From Shigella phage SSE1, in sequence record MK639187: a stretch of 64,000 nucleotides of DNA. One strand, written 5' to 3'. Below, piece after piece: positions 8,562 through 45,625 of this stretch. The notes under the pieces were generated by a model. It was given only the letters and a program-made list of their open reading frames with translations, was not told the DNA's origin and ran no database searches. Made by a program: the position numbers and the translations under genes. Position 1 is the first letter of the stretch. Each line of letters starts with the position of its first letter.

Positions 8562-9038
8562 ATGAAGGTGAAGATTGCTGACACTGCTCGGTATTCCCTG
8601 AGCCAAAATCCTGACCAAAACAAAGAAGACGTTGTTCGACGTTGTAAGGTTGCAGTCTTTGCAGAGTATGTAGTAGCAAATTGGCTAGACGGATATGTTA
8701 ATAAAGGTAATGAAGACGTAGAAGACCCGTACACGTATGCATGGGACGTTTTAGCTCATCCTAAATACTGCGGGTTACGTGTCGAAGTCAAGACGCACCA
8801 GATCGATTCTAAATGGATTTCGGTTACCACAGGATACAGTGGTGATTATCCAGGTGGCAACGGAATCAACATAGGGCCCTTCTTGAATCATCGAGTCGCA
8901 GATTGCATTATTATATTAGATGTCAAAGAAACCTCACCTGACGTCTTCTCTTATTCTATAAAGTTCGTGGGAGACCATGAGGACCTAAAGAAAATCGTCC
9001 GCAAGAGCAACTACAACGGGTGGTATCTTCATCTTTAA
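8562..9038 (+). CDS. hypothetical protein (positional candidate for denB, unverified)
   Basis: 158 aa from the ATG at 8562 just after the upstream stop; the track ORF 8418..9038 overlaps 8258..8545 in another frame, so the internal Met is preferred. Confidence 0.35.
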   Translation: MKVKIADTARYSLSQNPDQNKEDVVRRCKVAVFAEYVVANWLDGYVNKGNEDVEDPYTYAWDVLAHPKYCGLRVEVKTHQIDSKWISVTTGYSGDYPGGNGINIGPFLNHRVADCIIILDVKETSPDVFSYSIKFVGDHEDLKKIVRKSNYNGWYLHL

Positions 9039-9050
9039 TTTCATAAAAGT

Positions 9051-9087
9051 GTTTACAACTAAGTAGGACTATGATATAGTAGTCCTA
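9051..9087 (+). promoter_or_regulatory. early promoter (GTTTACA -35, TATAGT -10) with inverted repeat around the -10
   Basis: GTTTAC 9051-9056, TATAGT 9075-9080; TAGGACTA 9064-9071 pairs with TAGTCCTA 9080-9087. Confidence 0.55.
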
Positions 9088-9106
9088 TCTAAAAGAGGAT
9101 AACATT

Positions 9107-9370
9107 ATGAAATTTAAATTTTTCTACGCAAAACATAAAGTAACAGGCGAATTTGTTTCAATGTACAACACCGCCGATGACGAAGGGATGATTTATACTC
9201 ATTTAGGTCTATCTCATTGGGACTCAGACGTGCCTTATATGTCATCTGAAGCCGAAATAACTCGTTTAGTTAACGGACATATGAACGACCATTTTAGTGT
9301 TATTCTTTCTAAAGACCTTAAAGAGGTTATCAACAAAGGATATATGGAACTCGCGGAAGTTGAGATATGA
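9107..9370 (+). CDS. hypothetical small early protein
   Basis: 87-aa ORF downstream of a promoter cassette. Confidence 0.45.
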   Translation: MKFKFFYAKHKVTGEFVSMYNTADDEGMIYTHLGLSHWDSDVPYMSSEAEITRLVNGHMNDHFSVILSKDLKEVINKGYMELAEVEI

Positions 9371-9562
9371 GTTCTAAAATGTGGATCGGAATATGGTTGC
9401 TTAGTATCCCTATGATTTGTATAATATCTTCAATTGCATTGAGGTACTTATGAAAAATGCACTTCTTATTGTACTAAGAACAATTTGTGATACGGGTTTT
9501 TACATTGCATGTTCGTTCACTGGAACATGGTTGGCTTTAACATATTTTAATGTAATTTAATT

Positions 9563-9600
9563 GTTTACATCAAGGTAGGATTATGGTATAGTAGTCCTAC
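9563..9600 (+). promoter_or_regulatory. early promoter (GTTTACA, TATAGT) with inverted repeat around the -10
   Basis: GTTTAC 9563-9568, TATAGT 9587-9592; GTAGGATTA pairs with TAGTCCTAC (8 of 9). Confidence 0.55.
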
Positions 9601-9620
9601 TGAAACATGAGGAACACAAA

Positions 9621-9821
9621 ATGGCTAAGCTTTTTAAAGATGTTGAAATTGGTGAAAAATTTGTCCTGAATAATGGTCAGCAGCTTATTCGTGTAGCTTC
9701 TATCGCCGGACAAACTCATAACTGTATCGCCCCAACGTGTTGGACTCGATTCTTTATTGAAGATGACACTGAATGTTTAACTGTTGAAGAGCTTTTTGAA
9801 CGTTCTGATATAGCCGAATAA
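9621..9821 (+). CDS. hypothetical small early protein
   Basis: 66-aa ORF with AGGAAC spacer. Confidence 0.45.
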   Translation: MAKLFKDVEIGEKFVLNNGQQLIRVASIAGQTHNCIAPTCWTRFFIEDDTECLTVEELFERSDIAE

Positions 9822-9823
9822 AA

Positions 9824-9859
9824 TTGTACAAACTCTTGAGAGCAGAGTATAATGCTCTC
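9824..9859 (+). promoter_or_regulatory. early promoter (TTGTACA -35, TATAAT -10) with perfect 7-bp inverted repeat around the -10
   Basis: GAGAGCA 9838-9844 and TGCTCTC 9853-9859 bracket TATAAT 9848-9853. Confidence 0.55.
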
Positions 9860-9897
9860 ATGGATTACAAAAACATTAATCAATTGAGGAAATTAGC

Positions 9898-10344
9898 ATG
9901 TCCAAATATTTAACTCGTAAAGACCTTCTGGCAGTTGGCGGTGAAGTTGTTGCAGTAGTTCGTAACGGCGAATACGGTTCTGAAGTTTCTAAAGAGTTTC
10001 GTTCTCGTGAAGGTTTTTACTTCTTTGTTAAAGGTTCATCTGATTGGCGACAAGTAGCAGCACGATTCTTTGTAGGACGTCAACGTTCTAAACAAGGGTT
10101 GGATGCAATTCTTTCTCACATTCGTCAAGGCCGTTCGCAACTAGCCCGTACTATGGGCACTAACAATATTGAATATGATGTAATCTTTGTTGCAGCTAAG
10201 AACATGAAACCACTGACCACTGGTTACGGTAAAGGACAATTGGCTCTGGCATTCACTCGCAACCATACATCAGAATATCAAACACTCACTGAAATGAACC
10301 GTCTTCTGGCAGATAATTTCAAATTCATTCTGCAGAGTTACTAA
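9898..10344 (+). CDS. ndd: nucleoid disruption protein Ndd
   Basis: 148 aa; ...[10 protein letters not shown]...[14 protein letters not shown]...[21 protein letters not shown]...[11 protein letters not shown] matches recalled T4 Ndd. Confidence 0.8.
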
Positions 10345-10396
10345 TTTATATAGGCCTAGCTTAATAGGCCTTTAATTTATTTTTGAGGTAATTAAA

Positions 10397-10543
10397 ATGG
10401 TAGCATGGATTATTGCATTGCTGTGTTGGTCGTTTTTATTCGTTAACACTTTAGTTACAGGCGAAACAACAGTATTTCAACAGGCCGTATCACAAGGTAC
10501 CTTAGCGGTCTTAGCTCTTCTTAACGTATTAAAAGGCGAGTAA
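10397..10543 (+). CDS. small hydrophobic membrane peptide (ac/52.1 position)
   Basis: 48-aa ORF below the track cutoff, MVAWIIALLCWSFLFVNTLVTG..., one predicted TM helix. Confidence 0.4.
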   Translation: MVAWIIALLCWSFLFVNTLVTGETTVFQQAVSQGTLAVLALLNVLKGE

Positions 10544-10683
10544 TGATTAAGAAAATCTTAGCAGGAGCCTTCGGGCTCTTGTTGTTGCTTACGGTTCTGT
10601 ACTATGGTGTGATGTTTGGGCTAATCCAAGTAGTGCTTTTCATTTCAGATGTTATAATGGTTATTCGTTCATTAATATGGTGA
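10543..10683 (+). CDS. small hydrophobic membrane peptide
   Basis: 46-aa ORF, MIKKILAGAFGLLLLLTVLYYGVMFG..., ATG overlaps upstream stop. Confidence 0.4.
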   Translation: MIKKILAGAFGLLLLLTVLYYGVMFGLIQVVLFISDVIMVIRSLIW

Positions 10684-10687
10684 AAAT

Positions 10688-12013
10688 ATGCAATTGAATT
10701 CTCGTAATCTAAAAAGTATTATTGATAACGAAGCCTTAGCATATGCGATGTACACCGTTGAAAACCGTGCAATCCCAAACATGATTGATGGATTTAAGCC
10801 GGTTCAACGTTTTGTGGTTCATCGTGCGTTAGATTTGGCTCGTGGTAATAAAGAAAAATTTCATAAACTTGCGTCAATTGCAGGCGGTGTTGCAGATTTA
10901 GGTTATCACCATGGTGAATCTTCTGCACAAGATGCAGGTGCATTGATGGCTAACACATGGAACAACAACTATCCACTGTTAGATGGCCAAGGCAACTTTG
11001 GTTCTCGAACAGTCCAAAAAGCTGCAGCATCTCGTTATATTTTTGCTCGTGTAAGTAAAAATTTCTATAACGTATATAAAGATACTGAATATGCTCCAGC
11101 TCATGAAGATAAAGAACACATTCCACCAAAATTCTATCTTCCTATTATTCCGACAGTTCTTTTGAATGGTGTCTCTGGTATTGCAACCGGTTACGCAACA
11201 AATATTCTGCCTCATAGTTTTAAATCAGTCAAAAAGGCTGTATTACAAGCTCTTCAAGGTAAAAATGTCACTAAGCCAAAAGTTGAATTCCCGGAATTCC
11301 GTGGTGAAGTGCATGAAGTTGATGGGCGTTATGAGATTCACGGAACATATAAGTTCACATCTCGCACTCAAATGCAGATAACTGAAATCCCATATAAATT
11401 CGACCGTGAAACGTATGTGAGTAAGGTTCTTGACCCGTTGGAAGACAAAGGTCTAATCTCATGGGAAGATGATTGTGGTGAACACGGCTTTGGGTTTAAG
11501 GTGAAGTTCCGTAAAGAGTACTCGCTTCCTGATGATGAAGAGCTACGTCATGAAAAAATCATGAAAGATTTTAGTCTCATCGAACGTCGTTCACAAAACA
11601 TCACAGTGATTAATGAAAAGGGTAAATTAGCGGTCTACGATAACGTAGTGGACTTAATCAAAGATTTTGTTGAAGTCCGTAAGACTTACGTTCAGAAACG
11701 TATTGACAACAAAATCCTTGAATCTGAAAAAGCATTTAAACTTGCTTTTGCTAAGGCACACTTCATCAAAAAAGTTATTGCCGGTGAAATTGTGATTCAG
11801 GGCAAGACTCGTAAAGCTTTGACTGAAGAGCTAGCACAAATCGAAATGTATAAAGAACATGTCGATAAACTGGTAGGTCTTAACATCTTCCATATCACTT
11901 CCGACGAAGCACGTAAACTAGCAGAAGAAGCTAAAGCTAAGAAAGAAGAAAATGAGTATTGGAAGTCTACTGATGTTGTGACAGAGTACACTAAAGACTT
12001 GGAGGCACTTTGA
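10688..12013 (+). CDS. 52: DNA topoisomerase II medium subunit (GyrA-like)
   Basis: 441 aa; N-terminus MQLNSRNLKSIIDNEALAYAMYTVENRAIPNMIDGFKPVQR is the type II topoisomerase cleavage-domain signature; T4 gp52 is about 442 aa. Confidence 0.92.
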   Translation: MQLNSRNLKSIIDNEALAYAMYTVENRAIPNMIDGFKPVQRFVVHRALDLARGNKEKFHKLASIAGGVADLGYHHGESSAQDAGALMANTWNNNYPLLDGQGNFGSRTVQKAAASRYIFARVSKNFYNVYKDTEYAPAHEDKEHIPPKFYLPIIPTVLLNGVSGIATGYATNILPHSFKSVKKAVLQALQGKNVTKPKVEFPEFRGEVHEVDGRYEIHGTYKFTSRTQMQITEIPYKFDRETYVSKVLDPLEDKGLISWEDDCGEHGFGFKVKFRKEYSLPDDEELRHEKIMKDFSLIERRSQNITVINEKGKLAVYDNVVDLIKDFVEVRKTYVQKRIDNKILESEKAFKLAFAKAHFIKKVIAGEIVIQGKTRKALTEELAQIEMYKEHVDKLVGLNIFHITSDEARKLAEEAKAKKEENEYWKSTDVVTEYTKDLEAL

Positions 12014-12089
12014 GTGCCATAGCCTTAGGATTTCTCGGTGCAATAGCTGCACTAGTGATTTGGCTGTATTGGTTGGACAAACACGATTA

Positions 12090-12110
12090 GGGAGCTTCGG
12101 CTCCCTTTTG
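12090..12110 (+). terminator. intrinsic terminator, UUCG tetraloop hairpin
   Basis: GGGAGCTTCGGCTCCC followed by TTTT. Confidence 0.7.
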
Positions 12111-12132
12111 TGCATTTTTTTCTCACAAAACA

Positions 12133-12161
12133 GTTTACATGTGCTTCAAACATGGTATTAT
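12133..12161 (+). promoter_or_regulatory. early promoter (GTTTACA -35, TATTAT -10)
   Basis: 17-bp spacing, followed by the CCTATCAA element, upstream of motA. Confidence 0.55.
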
Positions 12162-12200
12162 AGACCTATCAAAACAAAACAACCAAATTGGAGAAATAAA

Positions 12201-12833
12201 ATGTCTAAAGTTACTTACATCATCAAAGCTTCTGAAAACGCTCTGAATGAAAAAACTGCCGCGATAATGGTTTATATCATTAAGAACAACTTCACCACTG
12301 CTGCCAATGTCCGTGAAGCTCTGGAAGCAGAATACAATGCATCAGTTGTTAACTCTAACATTGGTGTATTGATTAAGAAAGGTTTAGTCGAAAAATCCGG
12401 TGATGGACTTATAGCAACAGGCGAAGCAATGGATATTATCCAAAAAGCTGCAGACCTCTTTGCCCAAGAAAATGCTCCAGAACTTCTTCAGAAACGTAAC
12501 ACTAGAAAAGCACGTGGAGTTACTCCTGAAATGCATGAATTAGCAAACTTTGTTTTTGAAAATATTAAAGATAAAGTTGAAGTTAAAGAAATTGGTGAAA
12601 ACCGTAGTAACTTAGAAGTTCGATTCGCTAAACGAGTTCTAGGCATTCGCCAAATTGAAATTCGACGAGATGGCGCTCTTAGAATCTTTGCATATAACAT
12701 GTCAGAAACTGAATCAAAGCTGTTTACTTCTCTTGAAAATGATGTTAAGATTAAGATAGGTGGTAAATATACTTACATTGACTTCCCTAACGTGTCCAAA
12801 GAAATCATTACTCTTGTAACTAACGTACTGTGA
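12201..12833 (+). CDS. motA: MotA middle-transcription activator
   Basis: 210 aa from the internal ATG at 12201 (MSKVTYIIKAS...NSNIGVLIKKGLVEKSGDGL); matches recalled T4 MotA (211 aa); the track ORF starts upstream inside the terminator. Confidence 0.85.
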   Translation: MSKVTYIIKASENALNEKTAAIMVYIIKNNFTTAANVREALEAEYNASVVNSNIGVLIKKGLVEKSGDGLIATGEAMDIIQKAADLFAQENAPELLQKRNTRKARGVTPEMHELANFVFENIKDKVEVKEIGENRSNLEVRFAKRVLGIRQIEIRRDGALRIFAYNMSETESKLFTSLENDVKIKIGGKYTYIDFPNVSKEIITLVTNVL

Positions 12834-16236: not shown

Positions 16237-19200
16237 TTATGCTAAACGAACGATATAGTTAAAAGCAACGTTTTTAACAGTGTTTTCTGTATTTCCTGTG
16301 GCATTTACAGTTATTGTATGTCCATGGGAACCAATTGCAACAGTATGAGAATGAGCACCAATACCTACCGAATGGGTATGAGCACCAATACCTACCGTAT
16401 GGGCATGGTTACCAGTAGCGCTAGTAGTTCCTGACCAACTATGGGTATGGTTACCTTCTGTTGACGACTTTGCAATATATTGGCTTGTACCAGGCACGAC
16501 ACCGTTGCTTAGGCCAAAACCAACAACCTGAGACCCACTAATTAGAGTAGCCCCATTAGGAAATATCCCGGTCGGTTGGTTACTAGGTCCTCTTGGGCCT
16601 GTCTGTGAGTGCTGGTGGTTACCAGCGGCACTAGTATTACCACTCACTGTATGGTTATGGTTACCAGTAGTATTACTGGTTTTAGTACCATAATCAAAGC
16701 TTGAAGTCGTTTTGCTACCGTAATCAAAACTAGAAGTGGTCTTAGTACCTAAATCCGTGCTTGACGCACTTGCACTATGGCTATGTGACTTAACACCATC
16801 TTCTTCTGTACTTAATACAGCACGTCCAGATGGTTTACCCTTGATAGTTTGACCACGCATATCAGGCAGAGTGCCGGAAGGATACACCGCAGCTAACTTA
16901 GGATACAAGTCAGCATCAAACGTCTGGCCTTCCATTATGGCATAACCTTCAGGAGGTGTATCAGTAGGCCAAGGAATCGGAGCACCAATTGGATAACTTG
17001 AGACAATATCTGTCTTAAGGTTATTTATTGTCGAGTTCAAGTTAGCAAAGTTACCAGTGCCTCCAGTGATGTTACCATCAGTACCGAATTGAGCATTACC
17101 AACTTTTAATGGTTTAGTAATATCGACAGTATCAGAATTCAGTGCAATACCATGTGAATAGGTGTAACTATGCATACGAACGACGTTACCGCCATCGCCA
17201 ATACCTAAATACCATTTTGTAACATCTGCTTTACGTCCTTGAATAAAGTTAGAAGACTCTTGCGTTGGGGCATTTATTCTAATAGCATCTGACGCCGCAT
17301 TAACTGTAATACGTTTCCCTGCTGTTGTTCCACTAGTTTCTACTTTAAATATTCCACCACCGATATCTACATCATGGTCCATAGAAACTTTACCGGTACT
17401 TAATGTAATATAGAACGGACGTAAATTAGAAATACCACCTGATTCGCCAGCATTCTGTGGGGTCGGAATAATATAAAGCTTATCTTCTGAACGGCGGAAA
17501 ATAGCACCATATTCAGCGTTCCAAATTCTTAATACATCTGCTGTTCCACCAATTTTAACTTGGCCTGTAATAGAAGAACCACCTTGGACAAACAAACCGT
17601 TAGACATGGTAACATTGCCACCAAAAGAACCTGTACCGGAGGCACTTATATTACCAAGGCCTATGATATGGCCTGTTTCGACAGTTCCGTTAAATTTAAA
17701 GTTAACAGGACCTACTGTTTCACCAGAAGCCGGGTTGGTACGTTGAGCATAAAAATAATAACCTTGTGAATCTGATACTTCAAATACAGTTTCTCTATTA
17801 CCCTTTTCAGCGTTAAATGAGTTACCCCATGCTTTAATGGTTACAGTATTTTTATTCTGACCATTACGAGTACCTGCATCCCAGTTAATGGTTTTTGTCC
17901 CGTCAACGCCTGTAGGCGCTTTAAATGTCAAAGCATTGGTATTGTCATCACCTGATAAAAATAACCCAGTACGCATTGAAATACGTTGGGTTGAGTCAAA
18001 TGTACCATCTGCTCTAATAGCAACCCTATTTGAACTGGTTTTAATATCTAAAATGCCAGGCTCAACAAGAAGCCCATCACCCATACTAACGGACATACGA
18101 CCAGTGCCACGGAAATAGTGATACATCTTGGCATTGCTACTATAACCGATATGAGTCTGACCGTCACCGTTATTATTACCATCAACATCGGTACGCGCAG
18201 TAAACATTGCTTGGTTGTTATTTGGGTAATCCCAAGTAGAACCAGAATCTCGACTATAACCAACCATCAATTTTTTAGTACTGTTAATACCGTTATTAAG
18301 AATAGTGCCGGCAGAAATACCATTCGCAACTAAATCGATAACCCCGTCACGAACCCATTTAATACCAGTATCATTGTCACCAATTGCAATACCTTTACCA
18401 AACGAAACCAATGGATAACGTCCTTGGTCACCAACATCAGCAAGACCTATACCTATCGAATTAGCAACAGACATACGCCCATCTGTGGTATAAGACCATT
18501 GATAAACTTCAGCATTACGTCCTGTCCAATACGAAATATTCTGTGGTTTACCTGAACGAGCATCAGCAACTTCATGGAAAATAGCAGAAGAAACATGTCC
18601 GCGGAATTTACGAAGGTAGTTTATACCATTAGTATCCAAATCCGTTTCGGTTGGAGTATACTGCCAAGTCGGTAATGAAACTAAATCATATGCAGTATCA
18701 ATATTAGTGTCCCAAGATTTAGTGCTCACATTGATATTTTTGGTAATAACTTTAGGACCAATTAAAGAACCAGCTTTAGTTTCAATATTACTTTGAGTAA
18801 CTAAATATCCATTAGATACTAATAAACTTCCGGAATCAACTTGAAAATTACCGTTTCGATTAAAAGTCCAGTATTTTGAAGTCCCGGTTTCATCAATATA
18901 ATGGAATTTAAAACTACCTTCGTTTACTAATGTACCAGCAGAAAAAGTTCCATCTTTATAGCGTTGTTTAATCAGTGGATGGTATTCTGAAACAGAAGTA
19001 GTTGAACTTAAATCTGTAAAGATAGGGGCTTTATTCGAATGTTGGTTAGCCCAAGCGCCATTTCCAGTGGTTTTAGGTAAAAATTCAATGTATTTTCCTG
19101 CATAAACAAACTGATTTCCATTGAGATTATACGTGCCGTTTTGTAAATAATCGCCAGTTTGAGTTACATTACCGTTAATATCCCCACCCTTAGCAAAGCC

Positions 19201-26393: not shown

Positions 26394-26709
26394 TATTAAA
26401 CCGGTTGATGAGGCCGGTTTATCTGAACAAGAATTAGCAGTAAAACATGATAAAGATGACATCGCTAAATTGCTTGACCGTCAAGAAAACGGATTCATTA
26501 TCGAATCTATGGTTGAACAATTTGGTATGTCTTATTTAGAAGCAACAACTGCTTTCTTGGAAGAAAATTCTATTCCAGAAACACAATTTGCTAAATTTAT
26601 TCCTACAGGAATTGTTGAAAAAATTACAAGCGAAGCAATTGACGAAAACATGCTTCGCCCATCAGTTGCTCGTGGTGAAAAAACTAATACGTTAGATTTC
26701 TTATTATGA
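26371..26709 (+). CDS. 33: late transcription co-activator gp33
   Basis: 112 aa; MTQFSLSDIKPVDEAGLSEQEL...RQENGFIIESMVEQFGMSYLEATTAFLEENSIPETQFAKF matches recalled T4 gp33. Confidence 0.88.
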   Translation: MTQFSLSDIKPVDEAGLSEQELAVKHDKDDIAKLLDRQENGFIIESMVEQFGMSYLEATTAFLEENSIPETQFAKFIPTGIVEKITSEAIDENMLRPSVARGEKTNTLDFLL

Positions 26710-27389
26710 AATACGTTGTGTATAAAACTACCAATAAAATAAACGGTAAAATTTATATAGGCGTACACAAAAAACATAAAGAGAAAGATTGGTATATTGG
26801 GTCTGGTCGCGCTATATTAGCGGCCAAAGCTAAATACGGGCTAAAAAATTTTTATACTGAAGTTCTTTATGAATATGATAATGACAAGGACGCCTATAAA
26901 AAAGAAGCAGAATTGGTTAATGAAGATTTTGTTTTGCGAACTGATACTTATAACCTGGTTCCAGGTGGTAAAGGTGGCCCTGGTAAAAAACAAAGTGATG
27001 AAGCTAAAAGGGCTATTTCACTTTCTAAAATAGGGAAACCTAGATCTGAAGAGACTAAGGCTAAAGTATCTAAAACCAGATTAGAAAGAAAAATACCATC
27101 CCCTAATAAGGGTAAGAAACTATCTGAAGCTCATAAATTAGCTTTGAGTAAAGTCCGAAAAGGGCGAAAAACGAATAAGCCGATGCCTGATTCAACCAAA
27201 GAAGCTCTTAGAATAGCAAATTCAAAGCCGCATTCTAAAGAAAGAACTATTAAAAAACAAAAACCTATAATTATTGATGGTATAAAATACTCATCATGCA
27301 CAGAAGTTTCAGATGTTTTTAATATTTCTGCATCTCTAGTTACGTATAGACTTAAATCTTCAAAATGGCCTGGATGGAACTATGATTAA
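26706..27389 (+). CDS. GIY-YIG homing endonuclease (Seg-like)
   Basis: 227 aa; N-terminal VVYKTTNKINGKIYIGV (GIY-YIG motif), Lys/Ser-rich NUMOD-like linker, C-terminal helix-turn-helix; overlaps gp33 stop and gp59 start. Confidence 0.8.
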   Translation: MKYVVYKTTNKINGKIYIGVHKKHKEKDWYIGSGRAILAAKAKYGLKNFYTEVLYEYDNDKDAYKKEAELVNEDFVLRTDTYNLVPGGKGGPGKKQSDEAKRAISLSKIGKPRSEETKAKVSKTRLERKIPSPNKGKKLSEAHKLALSKVRKGRKTNKPMPDSTKEALRIANSKPHSKERTIKKQKPIIIDGIKYSSCTEVSDVFNISASLVTYRLKSSKWPGWNYD

Positions 27390-29069: not shown

Positions 29070-29091
29070 GGGAGACTTCGGTCTCCCTTTT
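29070..29091 (+). terminator. intrinsic terminator, UUCG tetraloop hairpin
   Basis: GGGAGACTTCGGTCTCCC followed by TTTT. Confidence 0.75.
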
Positions 29092-29118
29092 GAGTATCTG
29101 TAAATTGCCGAAAAAGTT

Positions 29119-29147
29119 GTTTACTTCTTCCCTGGATGTGTTAGTAT
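29119..29147 (+). promoter_or_regulatory. early promoter (GTTTAC, TAGTAT)
   Basis: 17-bp spacing, followed by the CCTATCAA element. Confidence 0.5.
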
Positions 29148-29176
29148 AGACCTATCAACAACATGAGGAAATCAAA

Positions 29177-29581
29177 ATGGAAATCGGAAAATCTTATATC
29201 ATTAACCCTTTATTTAAAGATGACTTTGTTCAAGAAGCACCACACAATAACGCTAAGATGTTAAAATTGATTGAACTCCACGGGCCTAGTTTTGTTGTAA
29301 ACGGAATGGAACCTGATTATGATAGCGATACGTCAAACGTAGTAAGTGTAACTATGGAAGATGGTACTGTATGTTCTGCCGGTGGTGAAATTGAAACTTA
29401 TTTTGAGATTTATCCTGACGAGTTCAAATACTTTATTGAGTACTTTACTGAGGTAACTTTAGAAAAGCCTCAACCTACTAACGAAGGTATACCTTTAGGT
29501 GTAACAAAAATCCATTGTATCGTAGATGAAACCAACGTCGACGAAATCATCAAACTTTTGCAAAAAACTTTTAAAAAGTAG
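29177..29581 (+). CDS. hypothetical protein (frd.3 position)
   Basis: 134-aa ORF with AGGAAA spacer. Confidence 0.5.
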   Translation: MEIGKSYIINPLFKDDFVQEAPHNNAKMLKLIELHGPSFVVNGMEPDYDSDTSNVVSVTMEDGTVCSAGGEIETYFEIYPDEFKYFIEYFTEVTLEKPQPTNEGIPLGVTKIHCIVDETNVDEIIKLLQKTFKK

Positions 29582-29618
29582 TGTACAATCAGATAGGGTT
29601 ATGTTATAGTAGCCCTAT
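29582..29618 (+). promoter_or_regulatory. early promoter (TGTACAA, TATAGT) with inverted repeat around the -10
   Basis: TATAGT 29605-29610; ATAGGGTTA pairs with TAGCCCTAT (8 of 9). Confidence 0.5.
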
Positions 29619-29645
29619 CAAATCAAAAGTGAAGCGGAGAATAAA

Positions 29646-31838: not shown

Positions 31839-31867
31839 CGCTTCAGTTTAAAAGTGTATAATAAATT

Positions 31868-31890
31868 AACGGGATAAATACTATCCCGTT
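31868..31890. promoter_or_regulatory. inverted repeat AACGGGATA / TATCCCGTT around a TACTAT element, upstream of the HNH gene
   Basis: 9-bp perfect arms separated by 5 bp. Confidence 0.4.
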
Positions 31891-31913
31891 GATACTACAA
31901 AGTGGATTATATT

Positions 31914-32549
31914 ATGGATTATTTAAAAATATATAAAAACTTGGTAAATAAAGAAAGAAATTTTGAAGATATAGATGGTGAATGGCATCATATAATCCCA
32001 AAATGTTTAGGTGGCACCGATGAGTCATACAATCTAGTTAAATTAACATATTCAGAACATTATTTGGCTCATCTTCTTTTATTAAAAATATATCCGAACA
32101 ATTTAGGTTTAGCAACCGCGGTTAATTTAATGAGTTCTAGAAATAATAAAGAATTTGGATGGGCTAGAGCAAAAATGGTTGATTTGCTTAAAGGGCGAAA
32201 ATTAGACCAAAAAACAAAAGATAAAATATCTCGTTCCAAACTAGGACATGTTAAATCTGAAGAGACTAAAGAAAAGATACGAAATTCTTTATTAGGTAAA
32301 AAACGTGGACAATACAATATAAAAATTAAATCAAAAATTTCTAAAGGAGTCCCATTAAAAGAATCAACTAAGCAAGCTATTTCTAATGCTATGATAGGAG
32401 CTAAGAATCCATTTGCAAAGAAAGTAATTATAAACGACGTAATATATGATACATTAAATGAAGCGTCAATAGCTTTATCTATGAGCACCCAAACGGTTAG
32501 ACGCCGTCTAAAATCATCAAATTATCCAACATGGAATTATTATGTATAA
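31914..32549 (+). CDS. HNH homing endonuclease (MobE-like, free-standing)
   Basis: About 211 aa from the ATG at 31914; EWHHIIPKCLGGTDESYNLVKLTYSEHYLAH (HNH motif) plus NUMOD-like repeats and C-terminal helix-turn-helix; stop overlaps the nrdA start. Confidence 0.75.
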   Translation: MDYLKIYKNLVNKERNFEDIDGEWHHIIPKCLGGTDESYNLVKLTYSEHYLAHLLLLKIYPNNLGLATAVNLMSSRNNKEFGWARAKMVDLLKGRKLDQKTKDKISRSKLGHVKSEETKEKIRNSLLGKKRGQYNIKIKSKISKGVPLKESTKQAISNAMIGAKNPFAKKVIINDVIYDTLNEASIALSMSTQTVRRRLKSSNYPTWNYYV

Positions 32550-36063: not shown

Positions 36064-36474
36064 ATGAAAGATATTGCCGCCGAATATTCCTTTATTAAAT
36101 ATACAGAATTGGAGCTATTAGAAGATGCAACAATTAAAACAGTTGATGTCCCTAATAAGAAAAATGTCATATACGCTATTGCTATAGATGACGAACTTGT
36201 GTATATTGGTAAAACCAAGAATTTAAAGAAACGCATTAACTATTATCGAACAGCCATAAATCGAAAAGACCAGACTTCAGATTCAAGAAAATCACTTATG
36301 ATTTTGGATGCCTTAATGCAAGGCAAAAAGGTTGAATTCTGGGCCCGCCAATGTTTTGACCTTTCAGTCACCAACGAACTTGGTTCAATGACCATCGCAA
36401 CAATGGACCTTGAAGAACCACTTTTTATCAAAAAGTTCAACCCGCCTTGGAATATCCAACATAAGAAAAAGTAG
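36064..36474 (+). CDS. denA: endonuclease II
   Basis: 136 aa; MKDIAAEYSFIKYTELEL...VIYAIAIDDELVYIGKTKNLKKRINYYRT (GIY-YIG-like core) ...FNPPWNIQHKKK; matches recalled T4 DenA (136 aa). Confidence 0.9.
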   Translation: MKDIAAEYSFIKYTELELLEDATIKTVDVPNKKNVIYAIAIDDELVYIGKTKNLKKRINYYRTAINRKDQTSDSRKSLMILDALMQGKKVEFWARQCFDLSVTNELGSMTIATMDLEEPLFIKKFNPPWNIQHKKK

Positions 36475-36503
36475 TTTACATACCACAAGGATTGTGGTAC
36501 AAT
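36474..36503 (+). promoter_or_regulatory. early promoter (GTTTACA, TACAAT) with CCACAA/TTGTGG inverted repeat
   Basis: 18-bp spacing; 6-bp inverted repeat immediately 5' of the -10. Confidence 0.5.
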
Positions 36504-37656: not shown

Positions 37657-37686
37657 GTTTACAAACACCAAGGAAGGTGTTACTAT
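37657..37686 (+). promoter_or_regulatory. early promoter (GTTTACA, TACTAT)
   Basis: 18-bp spacing; ACACC/GGTGT inverted repeat between the elements. Confidence 0.5.
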
Positions 37687-38848: not shown

Positions 38849-39063
38849 CTAAAGAACAACATGAATACATTAAAGGGCTTATCTATGAATCTGAAATGGC
38901 GGCTATGATTTATGGACGCCAGATTCAACGATTAGAATCTTTGCCTCCGACTAATGACCGCTTGTTAGTTCAGTCTCGTGCTAATCTGAAAAATGAATAT
39001 CAGAATAAGTGGGCAGTAGCGACTAAAGCTCTTCACGAGTATATTGAATCTTTAGTAAAATAG
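38839..39063 (+). CDS. hypothetical small protein
   Basis: 74-aa ORF. Confidence 0.4.
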   Translation: MPMTKEQHEYIKGLIYESEMAAMIYGRQIQRLESLPPTNDRLLVQSRANLKNEYQNKWAVATKALHEYIESLVK

Positions 39064-39098
39064 TTTACAAACTCTCAGGAGCAGAGTATAATGCTCCT
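39063..39098 (+). promoter_or_regulatory. early promoter (GTTTACA, TATAAT) with perfect 7-bp inverted repeat around the -10
   Basis: AGGAGCA 39078-39084 and TGCTCCT 39092-39098 bracket TATAAT 39087-39092. Confidence 0.55.
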
Positions 39099-41188: not shown

Positions 41189-41227
41189 GTTTACAACATG
41201 GTGGAGTTGTGATACTATAACTCTACC
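41189..41227 (+). promoter_or_regulatory. early promoter (GTTTACA, TACTAT) with inverted repeat around the -10
   Basis: GGTGGAGTT 41201-41209 pairs with AACTCTACC 41219-41227 (8 of 9). Confidence 0.5.
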
Positions 41228-44691: not shown

Positions 44692-44714
44692 GGGAGACTT
44701 CGGTCTCCCTTTTG
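44692..44714 (+). terminator. intrinsic terminator, UUCG tetraloop hairpin
   Basis: GGGAGACTTCGGTCTCCC followed by TTTT; identical hairpin to the one at 29070. Confidence 0.75.
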
Positions 44715-44746
44715 TGCGTTTAGGGCAGAAAAAGTTTAAAAAAGAT

Positions 44747-44775
44747 GTTTACTCTCCTGTAGGATGTGTTACTAT
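44747..44775 (+). promoter_or_regulatory. early promoter (GTTTAC, TACTAT)
   Basis: 17-bp spacing. Confidence 0.5.
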
Positions 44776-44816
44776 AGACTTGTACCACCTAATCAATAAA
44801 ACAATCGGAGAATAAA

Positions 44817-45185
44817 ATGAAAATCAATCTGAACTCATACATCAAATGTAAAGACCACGACGGTTATAAAGCTATCGAAATTAAAGAATTCCAGTGGATG
44901 TTATACAAAGAGCAATTTGAGTTCGTAGGTTGTATGACCCCTGAAGGTCCTTCAGATGATTTCTCTTGGAAAATTGTGTTAGCAAACTTTTTCACAGGTG
45001 ACACATACGAATTAAAAACTATTATTACCGGTAAAATTCGTTCAGAAACATATGTTGACGAAGAAACTGGTTACTCTGAAGATGTTACATGGTATCAAAA
45101 TGGACGCATTACAGCAGATAACCTGATCGAAAAAATGAAAGCCAAAGGTGTTTTAAATTTAGACAATTGGATTAAAGTTGCATAA
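44817..45185 (+). CDS. hypothetical protein
   Basis: 122-aa ORF. Confidence 0.45.
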   Translation: MKINLNSYIKCKDHDGYKAIEIKEFQWMLYKEQFEFVGCMTPEGPSDDFSWKIVLANFFTGDTYELKTIITGKIRSETYVDEETGYSEDVTWYQNGRITADNLIEKMKAKGVLNLDNWIKVA

Positions 45186-45189
45186 AACA

Positions 45190-45229
45190 GTTTACTTTGG
45201 TACAGGTTATGTTATTATAGACCTGTACC
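45190..45229 (+). promoter_or_regulatory. early promoter (GTTTAC, TATTAT) with perfect 9-bp inverted repeat around the -10
   Basis: GGTACAGGT 45199-45207 pairs with ACCTGTACC 45221-45229. Confidence 0.55.
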
Positions 45230-45259
45230 AACAAACAACTTAAACATCTGGAGAATAAA

Positions 45260-45625
45260 ATGAACTACACCAACTTCGAACGCAAATATGTTTCTAATGG
45301 TATCGCTGGTTCTATCGATATGGTTTGTTTGTGGAAGCATAAAAATGGTTCAGTATGTGAAATTGAGCAGTGCATGACTCCTAATTATGTTTATATGCGA
45401 TTTGAAAATGGCATCACGGTTTCAATCACGATGGAAGGTTCAAATTTTAAAATTGCATTAGATGATGATTTCCGTCAGCGTGATTTAGGTACTCATCCTT
45501 GCTGGAACGGTGTTAATCGTAAACTTCTGGTTAAAACTTGGATTCGTCATATCCTGAGTAACCGAGCTAAACATGAACATCTCGAAGCAATCTTTGATGT
45601 AGTTCTTAACGAATTTGATATCTAA
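45260..45625 (+). CDS. hypothetical protein
   Basis: 121-aa ORF. Confidence 0.45.
   Translation: MNYTNFERKYVSNGIAGSIDMVCLWKHKNGSVCEIEQCMTPNYVYMRFENGITVSITMEGSNFKIALDDDFRQRDLGTHPCWNGVNRKLLVKTWIRHILSNRAKHEHLEAIFDVVLNEFDI

Follow-up and report, generated by a model that had tools for sequence, protein, structure and literature searches.

Co-varying inverted repeats across the -10 box of early promoters in Shigella phage SSE1: PeSL-type cassettes that probably encode a hairpin for read-through RNA

In a 64,000-nucleotide stretch of Shigella phage SSE1 (record MK639187; hereafter the window), the segment 9051-9859 carries predicted early promoters whose -10 box lies between the two arms of an inverted repeat, an arrangement found again elsewhere in the window and in related phages. 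The repeats are enriched over chance, they co-vary, they are locked in one register relative to the -10 box, they are biased towards wobble pairs, they are exclusive of upstream terminators, and they recur with the cassettes that contain them. Such elements resemble the promoter-early stem-loops (PeSLs) of phages RB49 and phi1, which consist of a strong sigma70-like early promoter together with a stem-loop, in five positional subclasses (Arbiol et al. 2010, PMC2839356). We think it probable that these are composite promoters of the PeSL type, in which the positions left free by the promoter encode a sense-strand RNA hairpin acting on read-through transcripts as an attenuator or 3′-end barrier. 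They represent no new kind of element, being PeSL-type elements in a genus where these had not been spelled out.

The 4 kb surrounding the segment are 98-99.6% identical to coliphages of the RB69/HX01/JS09 type, genus Mosigvirus, and the window belongs to an RB69/HX01-like Mosigvirus, a T4-type coliphage. From the annotated relative HX01, the early genes occupy the + strand of the window (in HX01 the order is gp39, rIIA, rIIB, denB, ndd, ac, gp52, motA ... asiA, followed by rnh, gp59, gp32, frd, td, nrdA/B, pseT, cd, ligase and alt), and the - strand carries late genes for tail fibre and baseplate. The segment is bracketed by denB and ndd and contains two small open reading frames (ORFs), 9107-9370 and 9621-9821, neither of which had a Pfam match. 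The pattern GTTTAC-N16-20-TAnnnT was found 17 times in the window, compared to 5.3±2.1 times in shuffled sequences, none of 100 shuffles reaching 17. Thirteen of the matches were intergenic, on the + strand, and followed by a Shine-Dalgarno (SD) sequence and an ATG. Near-consensus -35 boxes were present at four further promoters (411, ATGTAC; 9824, TTGTAC; 29581, GTGTAC; and 38805), so that inspection left about 17 plausible + strand early promoters, 13 with an exact GTTTAC and 4 near-consensus, all intergenic. They have the features of T4-type early promoters, namely a GTTTAC(A/T) -35 box, a spacer of 16-18 bp, TGn (in most of them), a TAnnnT -10 box and an A-rich upstream region, and a conserved (A)GACCTATCAAC stretch, then SD and ATG, comes after most of them. 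A generic sigma70 scan of 8900-12300 ranked the four early promoters at the top. The consensus over 151 representatives, GTTTACA...tgTGnTAttAT, agrees with that of RB69 and T4 early promoters (PMC1524935, PMC2988021); the T4 RefSeq record has no promoter features annotated. The promoters are thus predicted T4-type early (sigma70) promoters, as the initial annotation had proposed for about 18 GTTTAC/TAnnnT sites.

Eight of these roughly 17 promoters, all on the + strand, carry an inverted repeat of 6-11 bp whose left arm falls within the spacer and whose right arm is placed just 3′ of the -10 box. Three lie at the segment that was our starting point. The promoter after denB and before the 87-aa ORF 9107-9370 (9051-9087; -35 GTTTAC at 9051-9056, TGa, -10 TATAGT at 9075-9080) has arms TAGGACTA (9064-9071) and TAGTCCTA (9080-9087), with an RNA fold of -13.2 kcal/mol (z -4.3). 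The one before the 66-aa ORF 9621-9821 (9563-9600; -35 at 9563-9568, -10 TATAGT at 9587-9592) has arms GTAGGATTA (9575-9583) and TAGTCCTAC (9592-9600), with one U.G wobble (-13.6 kcal/mol, z -3.5). That of ndd (9824-9860; -35 TTGTAC at 9824-9829, -10 TATAAT at 9848-9853) has arms TGAGAGCA (9837-9844) and TGCTCTCA (9853-9860), folding at -13.9 kcal/mol (z -4.3), and belongs to a family in which a stem arm follows ACAAACTC and its partner follows AGAGTATAAT. The ndd cassette has a paralogue, its stem compensated, at 39063-39098 (-10 TATAAT at 39087-39092; arms AGGAGCA at 39077-39083 and TGCTCCT at 39092-39098; -12.2 kcal/mol, z -2.8).

The four other sites are spread over the window. They are a promoter at 411-445 (-35 ATGTAC, -10 TACTAT at 435-440; arms GGTCTAT at 426-432 and ATAGACC at 439-445), one at 29581-29619 (-35 GTGTAC, -10 TATAGT at 29605-29610; arms GATAGGGTTA at 29592-29601 and TAGCCCTATC at 29610-29619, one U.G; -16.3 kcal/mol, z -6.5), one at 41189-41227 (-10 TACTAT at 41213-41218; arms GGTGGAGTT at 41200-41208 and AACTCTACC at 41219-41227, one G.U; -16.9 kcal/mol, z -5.7), and one at 45190-45231 (spacer 16, -10 TATTAT at 45213-45218; 11-bp arms at 45197-45207 and 45221-45231; -17.9 kcal/mol, z -5.2). 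RNA folding energies of the seven -10-straddling hairpins that were tested range from -12 to -18 kcal/mol (z -2.8 to -6.5), and when G.U pairs are counted the straddling helices reach 10-13 bp with loops of 4-8 nt. When left and right promoter halves were swapped between the promoters of the window, perfect repeats of 6 bp or more flanking the -10 box were expected in 1.0 promoter, compared to the 7 of 17 observed (P<2e-4).

Nine repeat pairs had been listed at first. Seven of them do straddle the -10 box; the pair 31868/31882 lies outside the GTTTAC early promoters, and the pair 36481/36492 is internal to the spacer. The eighth straddling pair, 426-432/439-445, was absent from that list. The spacer-internal repeat, in the early promoter at 36474-36503 (+ strand), has arms TACCACAA (36481-36488) and TTGTGGTA (36492-36499) and folds at -8.3 kcal/mol (z -3.4); its right arm overlaps TGn and the first part of the -10 box, and it belongs to a conserved sequence family that is present in T4 too. 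Folding of the spacer-internal hairpins at 37664 and 52106 was not individually significant. A conserved (A)GACCTATCAA(C/A) stretch was also seen directly 3′ of the -10 box (431-456, 12152-12177, 29138-29163, 29601-29626 and 45209-45234). It corresponds to the discriminator and initial transcribed region, is common to promoters with and without a hairpin, and makes up part of the right arm in the hairpin promoters.

The enrichment was examined on a larger scale with 206 loci (3.6 Mb) of T-even-type phages in IMG/VR, together with part of T4 and most of HX01. One promoter-calling rule applied to all loci gave 656 unique promoters, and 342 after cores at least 80% identical had been dropped. For the null, each aligned column was shuffled among promoters, which keeps the consensus and destroys covariation within a promoter; perfect repeats between the -35 box and +18 were counted as stems. 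Stems of at least 7 bp were present in 64 of the 342 promoters, compared to 11.3±3.4 expected and a null maximum of 23. For stems of at least 8 bp the counts were 40 against 2.9 expected, and for at least 9 bp 23 against 0.67. With hairpins in only about 20% of the promoters, the signal from a column-by-column count of Watson-Crick excess over the whole set was weak (best anti-diagonal sum, z 8.9), and best-stem and register counts were used in its place. T4 itself carries such hairpins, before dmd (GACAAGACTA/TAGTCTTGTC) and before motB (GGGACCA/TGGTCCC). Folding was in excess in two slots alone: across the -10 box (z -10) and, where a terminator would classically be placed, upstream of the -35 box (z -10.5). 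Between them there was no excess. Separately, the translation-initiation region, from +20 to +60 after the -10 box, had less structure than expected from shuffled columns (z +2.4 to +2.8), as would suit ribosome-binding sites selected to stay open.

The stems are not placed at random. Thirty of the 64 share the register i+j=1, in which the dyad axis falls between the first two bases of the -10 hexamer, T-12 and A-11, where 0.58 were expected and the null reached 3 at most. Lesser clusters correspond to the spacer-internal family TACCACA..TGTGGTA and to a register about 3 bp upstream, and the remaining registers are those of chance. About the -12/-11 axis the extended -10 consensus, A-T-G-n-T-A-n-T-A-T, has a dyad symmetry of its own and provides apical A-U, U-A and G.U pairs in RNA, so that the T-12/A-11 register is the cheapest one in which to build a stable helix. 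The same symmetry could be turned into a neutral account, in which the palindromic -10 consensus seeds quasi-palindromes, template-switch correction perfects them and descent from duplicated cassettes inflates the counts. Template-switch correction of quasi-palindromes is known in T4, many of the copies belong to few families, and the column null itself favours the T-12/A-11 register about 3-fold. The observed excess in that register is nevertheless about 50-fold over a null that keeps column composition, template switching would yield perfect Watson-Crick arms instead of the G.T excess reported below, exclusivity with terminators is not predicted, and syntenic promoters retain a hairpin although its sequence and register have changed. 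We regard this neutral origin as quite unlikely.

Pairing is kept while sequence changes. A cassette family was picked solely by its conserved frame ACAAACTC...AGAGTATAAT, which is found before ndd, at 39061, before T4 motB and in six other phages. The stems in this frame read GAGAGCA, AGGAGCA, GGGACCA, GAGGACA and GGGAGCA, each with its matching partner; over 9 distinct sequences the 7 inner pairs are 100% paired, and 4 of the pairs have changed on both sides. None of 500 shuffles reached this pairing, and slid controls were 36-62% paired. Syntenic orthologues behave likewise, their arms differing between phages with pairing kept, sometimes with a change of register too. Downstream of gene 32 (the 29581 site) the arms found across phages are GATAGGGTTA/TAGCCCTATC, GATAGGACTA/TAGTCCTATC, GGGTTAT/ATAACCC and GTCTAT/ATAGAC, and at the 41213 site the window has GGTGGAGTT/AACTCTACC and its orthologues GGTAGAGTT/AGCTCTACC and GGTAGGACT/AGTCCTACC. 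An A-U, G.U, G-C series is found across the window site 39077 and loci L045 and L047. One counter-example was met, a T.T mismatch in the HX01 orthologue of the 9064 arm. Since the repeats co-vary and far exceed chance, selection acts on the pairing and not on the sequence, as had been concluded initially from compensatory change.

The initial annotation had left the choice between a hairpin or cruciform and the site of a dimeric protein. The latter would place an operator over the -10 box, and dyad symmetry over the core promoter is indeed the classical position for a repressor. An operator should show the same half-site at a fixed spacing everywhere, and we found instead 25 distinct left arms among 35 register-1 promoters, with arm lengths varying from 6 to 13 bp and spacings from 5 to 18 nt. 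Because the arms are unrelated between copies, and because non-Watson-Crick positions are strand-asymmetric (G.T and not A.C, see below), the dimeric site is disfavoured and appears very improbable to us; it is the hairpin part of the proposal that we keep.

The next question is which molecule folds. Since +1 is downstream of the left arm, the promoter's own transcript cannot form the hairpin, which leaves DNA, or RNA that reads through from upstream, as the molecule that folds. We took a census of isolated non-Watson-Crick positions in the helices, outside TGn and the -10 box, instead of a stem search tolerant of G.U or A.C. It gave 20 G.T positions versus 6 A.C, for a null G.T fraction of 0.45 (p=0.0009). 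Relative to the null, G.T is 6.6-fold in excess, A.C 1.6-fold and other mismatches 1.4-fold. The G.T excess points to pairing in the sense strand.

A second line of evidence comes from terminators, defined as a stem followed by a T-run within 90 nt upstream. A core stem of at least 7 bp was present in 1 of 38 promoters with such an upstream intrinsic terminator and in 63 of 304 without (p=0.004), and the exclusivity was also seen with core folds of -10 kcal/mol or better. The association is restricted to stems with a T-run, the raw minimum free energy of the 70 nt upstream showing none with the core hairpin. In the window, the three promoters behind UUCG terminators (12090, 29070, 44692) have no hairpin, and the hairpin promoters have no terminator. 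The clearest contrast is 12090-12161 on the + strand, where the terminator (12090-12105 and its T-run) is followed by an early promoter without a core hairpin at 12133-12161, a layout that recurs at 29070-29147 and 44692-44775. These UUCG-tetraloop terminators are near-identical, GGGAG(A)CTTCGG(T)CTCCC and a T-run (12090-12105, 29070-29087, 44692-44709), and each lies about 40-55 nt upstream of its promoter, in a classical terminator-then-promoter cassette. No Rfam family matched anywhere in the window at its gathering score. Finally, promoters whose upstream coding sequence is on the opposite strand, and which therefore receive no read-through, never had a core fold of -10 kcal/mol or better (0 of 19, versus 47 of 244; p=0.03).

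The following arrangement would account for these observations. Each cassette would be a strong sigma70 early promoter made of an UP-like A-tract, GTTTAC, a spacer of 16-17 bp, TGn and TAnnnT. The positions that polymerase does not read, in the distal spacer (about -25 to -16) and in the discriminator and start region (about -7 to +6), would be complementary to each other, and a hairpin would form in same-strand RNA reading through from the upstream gene. This hairpin would most likely do the job of an intercistronic terminator hairpin, attenuating read-through and/or serving as a 3′-end barrier for the upstream cistron. It would replace a separate terminator in very short intergenic gaps, which at only 50-70 bp leave no space for one. 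That the hairpin forms in RNA in vivo and plays the part of attenuator or 3′ barrier is what we infer from the patterns above.

Several results weigh against this proposal. The hairpin is found in only about 20% of the promoters. The p-values are optimistic, because representatives below 80% identity still share phylogeny. The unit-start difference is not significant when stems are counted (1 of 19 versus 48 of 244, p=0.22). On the + strand no U-tract follows any of the -10-straddling hairpins, a terminator scan finds none there, and the tails are A-rich (ATCAAC, AACAAG); lacking the U-tract, the hairpins are not canonical intrinsic terminators, which combine it with a GC-rich hairpin. Attenuation is extrapolated from a single GC-rich stem-loop of RB49, which lowered lacZ expression like a strong terminator (PMC2839356), and the promoters and transcript ends of this phage are predictions. 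A literature search gave no usable map of T4 transcript 3′ ends. A model in which a sigma70-dependent pause at the -10 box makes the hairpin a U-less terminator was set aside by geometric reasoning alone, because the right arm would still be within the RNA:DNA hybrid at the expected pause site.

Other points on the same side bear on whether the element acts as DNA. The folding excess of the whole core segment is similar on both strands (z -11.8 sense, -9.3 antisense), so the strand assignment comes solely from the wobble census, and the G.T bias would suit a DNA hairpin of the non-template strand as well. A fixed -12/-11 register could also point to promoter function, since it places the dyad at the upstream edge of the transcription bubble. 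A cruciform or non-template hairpin with its apex at -12/-11 might then change how the promoter opens, how sensitive it is to supercoiling, or when early transcription takes place and is shut off; the mechanism of shut-off is reported as unknown for early promoters (PMC2988021). Several facts speak against it. The asymmetry between A.C and G.T does not suit a two-stranded structure, terminator exclusivity and absence at unit starts have no obvious reason if the hairpin serves the promoter, hairpins in other registers and inside the spacer also occur, and most strong promoters have none. Moreover, Watson-Crick arms of 7-11 bp with 8-18 nt between them are poor cruciform formers. We hold a DNA-level role to be unlikely. 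A stricter version, in which the register lock is functional and the T-12/A-11-centred hairpin acts on promoter DNA, its formation being driven by supercoiling or by upstream transcription, is more doubtful still; if true, it would define a switchable subclass of early promoters, and may contribute to the unexplained rapid early shut-off of T4-type phages.

Like PeSLs, the cassettes are dispersed repeats associated with insertions and deletions. They measure 46-91 nt and fall into families D3, D5, D6 and D9. The 39063 and ndd cassettes form family D9, and the stretch after the -10 box is family D4. In family D5, a small ORF lies between two 91-nt repeats that are 74% identical (44731-44821 and 45174-45264). 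The perfect 11-bp hairpin is that of the second copy; in the first, the right arm (AGACTTGTACCA) is related to it, the left arm is not, and an upstream terminator is present instead. This first copy looks like a chimera. HX01 has an extra 71-aa ORF between two cassette copies, and the single stretch 12132-12209 of the window matches HX01 twice (L001 24132-24531), a difference that is a PeSL-type insertion or deletion. Overall, 15 of 273 homology breakpoints fell in cassettes, 2.5-fold more than the 2.2% expected. It had been suggested that cassette boundaries be compared with gene-content breakpoints: the HX01 difference and the enrichment go in the expected direction, the enrichment being weak as a test, since some excess of breakpoints is to be expected in intergenic regions of any kind. 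The cassettes had also been said to lie mostly before small ORFs. This holds in the window, where the ORFs downstream of early promoters are of 66-148 aa, and is equally true of promoters without a hairpin in the larger sample (median 97 aa with hairpin versus 105 without, p=0.87).

We envisage that these dispersed cassettes would also offer the homology for recombination by which small ORFs are gained and lost. One may go further and suppose that the stem-loop is itself a mobility signal, for excision and insertion of the PeSL type through mini-circles or for structure-specific nucleases, pairing being kept because it helps the cassette to spread. Crossovers and mini-circles have been mapped to PeSL cassettes, in RB49 with a crossover within the stem-loop (PMC2839356), and the family present before ndd, at 39061 and before T4 motB occupies non-syntenic sites. 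However, homologous recombination requires a repeat and not a hairpin, the cassettes at the one clear indel of the window (12156 type) have no hairpin, and neither the G.U bias of the sense strand nor the exclusivity with terminators would be predicted. As the reason for the pairing, such a signal is in our opinion improbable.

The comparison with HX01 revealed differences of other kinds. ORFs 26706-27389 (227 aa) and 31902-32549 (215 aa) are absent from HX01, the alignment breaking at window positions 26709/27381 and 31890/32572. Matches to the I-TevI DNA-binding domain and NUMOD3 are common to the two, the first having one to the SegE GIY-YIG domain in addition; by these matches they are predicted seg-like homing endonuclease insertions, between gp33 and gp59 and between td and nrdA, respectively. 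The repeat pair 31868/31882 mentioned above belongs to the second of these loci. It is a perfect 9-bp stem-loop (31868-31876 and 31882-31890, 5-nt loop) after a MotA-box-like middle promoter, CGCTTCA-11 nt-TATAAT (31840-31890), and its end is the exact left boundary of the insertion. Conversely, HX01 has an HNH endonuclease ORF (L001 13102-13785) upstream of the gene for the large topoisomerase subunit, which is absent from the window phage (window 1762-1836). The stretch most divergent from HX01, 16460-17740 on the - strand (gaps 16460-16609 and 17101-17740), encodes the distal tail-fibre/adhesin homologues of gp37 and gp38, and probably reflects a difference in host range.

If the hairpin acts as we propose, a phage with intergenic gaps of 50-70 bp overlays two signals on the same nucleotides: polymerase would read the -35 box, TGn and the -10 box, and the unread bases of spacer and start region would encode an RNA hairpin for the transcript arriving from upstream. 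Programs that find terminators by their U-tract would then overlook such transcript boundaries when T4-like genomes are annotated. In evolutionary terms, the range of PeSL-type cassettes now takes in RB69-like phages, and a second slot is added in T4. The register, the terminator exclusivity and the tolerance of G.U supply quantitative rules that can be tested. Relative to the texts on PeSLs and T4 promoters that were consulted, what appears to be new is the -10 slot in T-even-type phages including T4, the -12/-11 register lock, the terminator exclusivity and the sense-strand wobble (G.U) bias.

Among known systems, the hairpin promoters of phage N4 and the single-strand promoters of conjugative plasmids also have a DNA hairpin overlapping promoter elements. 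Those are read by a dedicated polymerase or rebuild a duplex from single-stranded DNA, whereas here an ordinary duplex sigma70 promoter has its -10 box in the loop. Barriers to 3′ exonucleases of the repetitive extragenic palindrome (REP) type are intercistronic stabiliser hairpins, and resemble the present elements, by analogy only, as hairpins without a U-tract between the cistrons of a polycistronic RNA; the elements described here are embedded in a functional promoter. Like intrinsic terminators they would place a stable RNA hairpin where a cistron ends, and they appear to substitute for them, but they have no U-tract, their loops contain the -10 box and their stems are less GC-rich. In RB69 itself, 57 early promoters were predicted by Nolan et al. 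2006, where repeats are not mentioned (PMC1524935). In the PeSLs of T4/PST and KVP40/nt-1, the promoter has its stem-loop just upstream (Comeau et al. 2014, PMC4122927); like these, the window has TTTACW-N17-TAYWAT promoters and stem-loops in hyperplastic regions, with UUCG terminator then promoter at 12090, 29070 and 44692, and unlike them it uses a second slot straddling the -10 box, used in T4 as well (dmd, motB), the two slots being mutually exclusive.

The closest relatives are the PeSLs of RB49 and phi1. In both cases the region upstream of a strong sigma70-type early promoter is AT-rich, and the promoter, with a stem-loop within or adjacent to it, lies between a stop codon and the SD and ATG of the next small gene, G-T pairs occur in the stems (they are drawn in those of PeSLs), and repeated cassettes are tied to ORF gain and loss. 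The likeness to PeSLs drawn in the initial annotation was therefore correct, and closer than it held: it saw a difference in that the repeat overlaps the -10 box instead of following it, but there is no such positional difference, because PeSL stem-loops are mostly described between the -35 box and the -10 box, or as overlapping the latter (PMC2839356), as here. The differences lie elsewhere, in the -35 box (GTTTAC here, TTGACA in PeSLs), in the stems, which are AT-richer and highly diverse here compared to GGGG...CCCC in PeSLs, and in the genus, Mosigvirus, which had no prior PeSL description.

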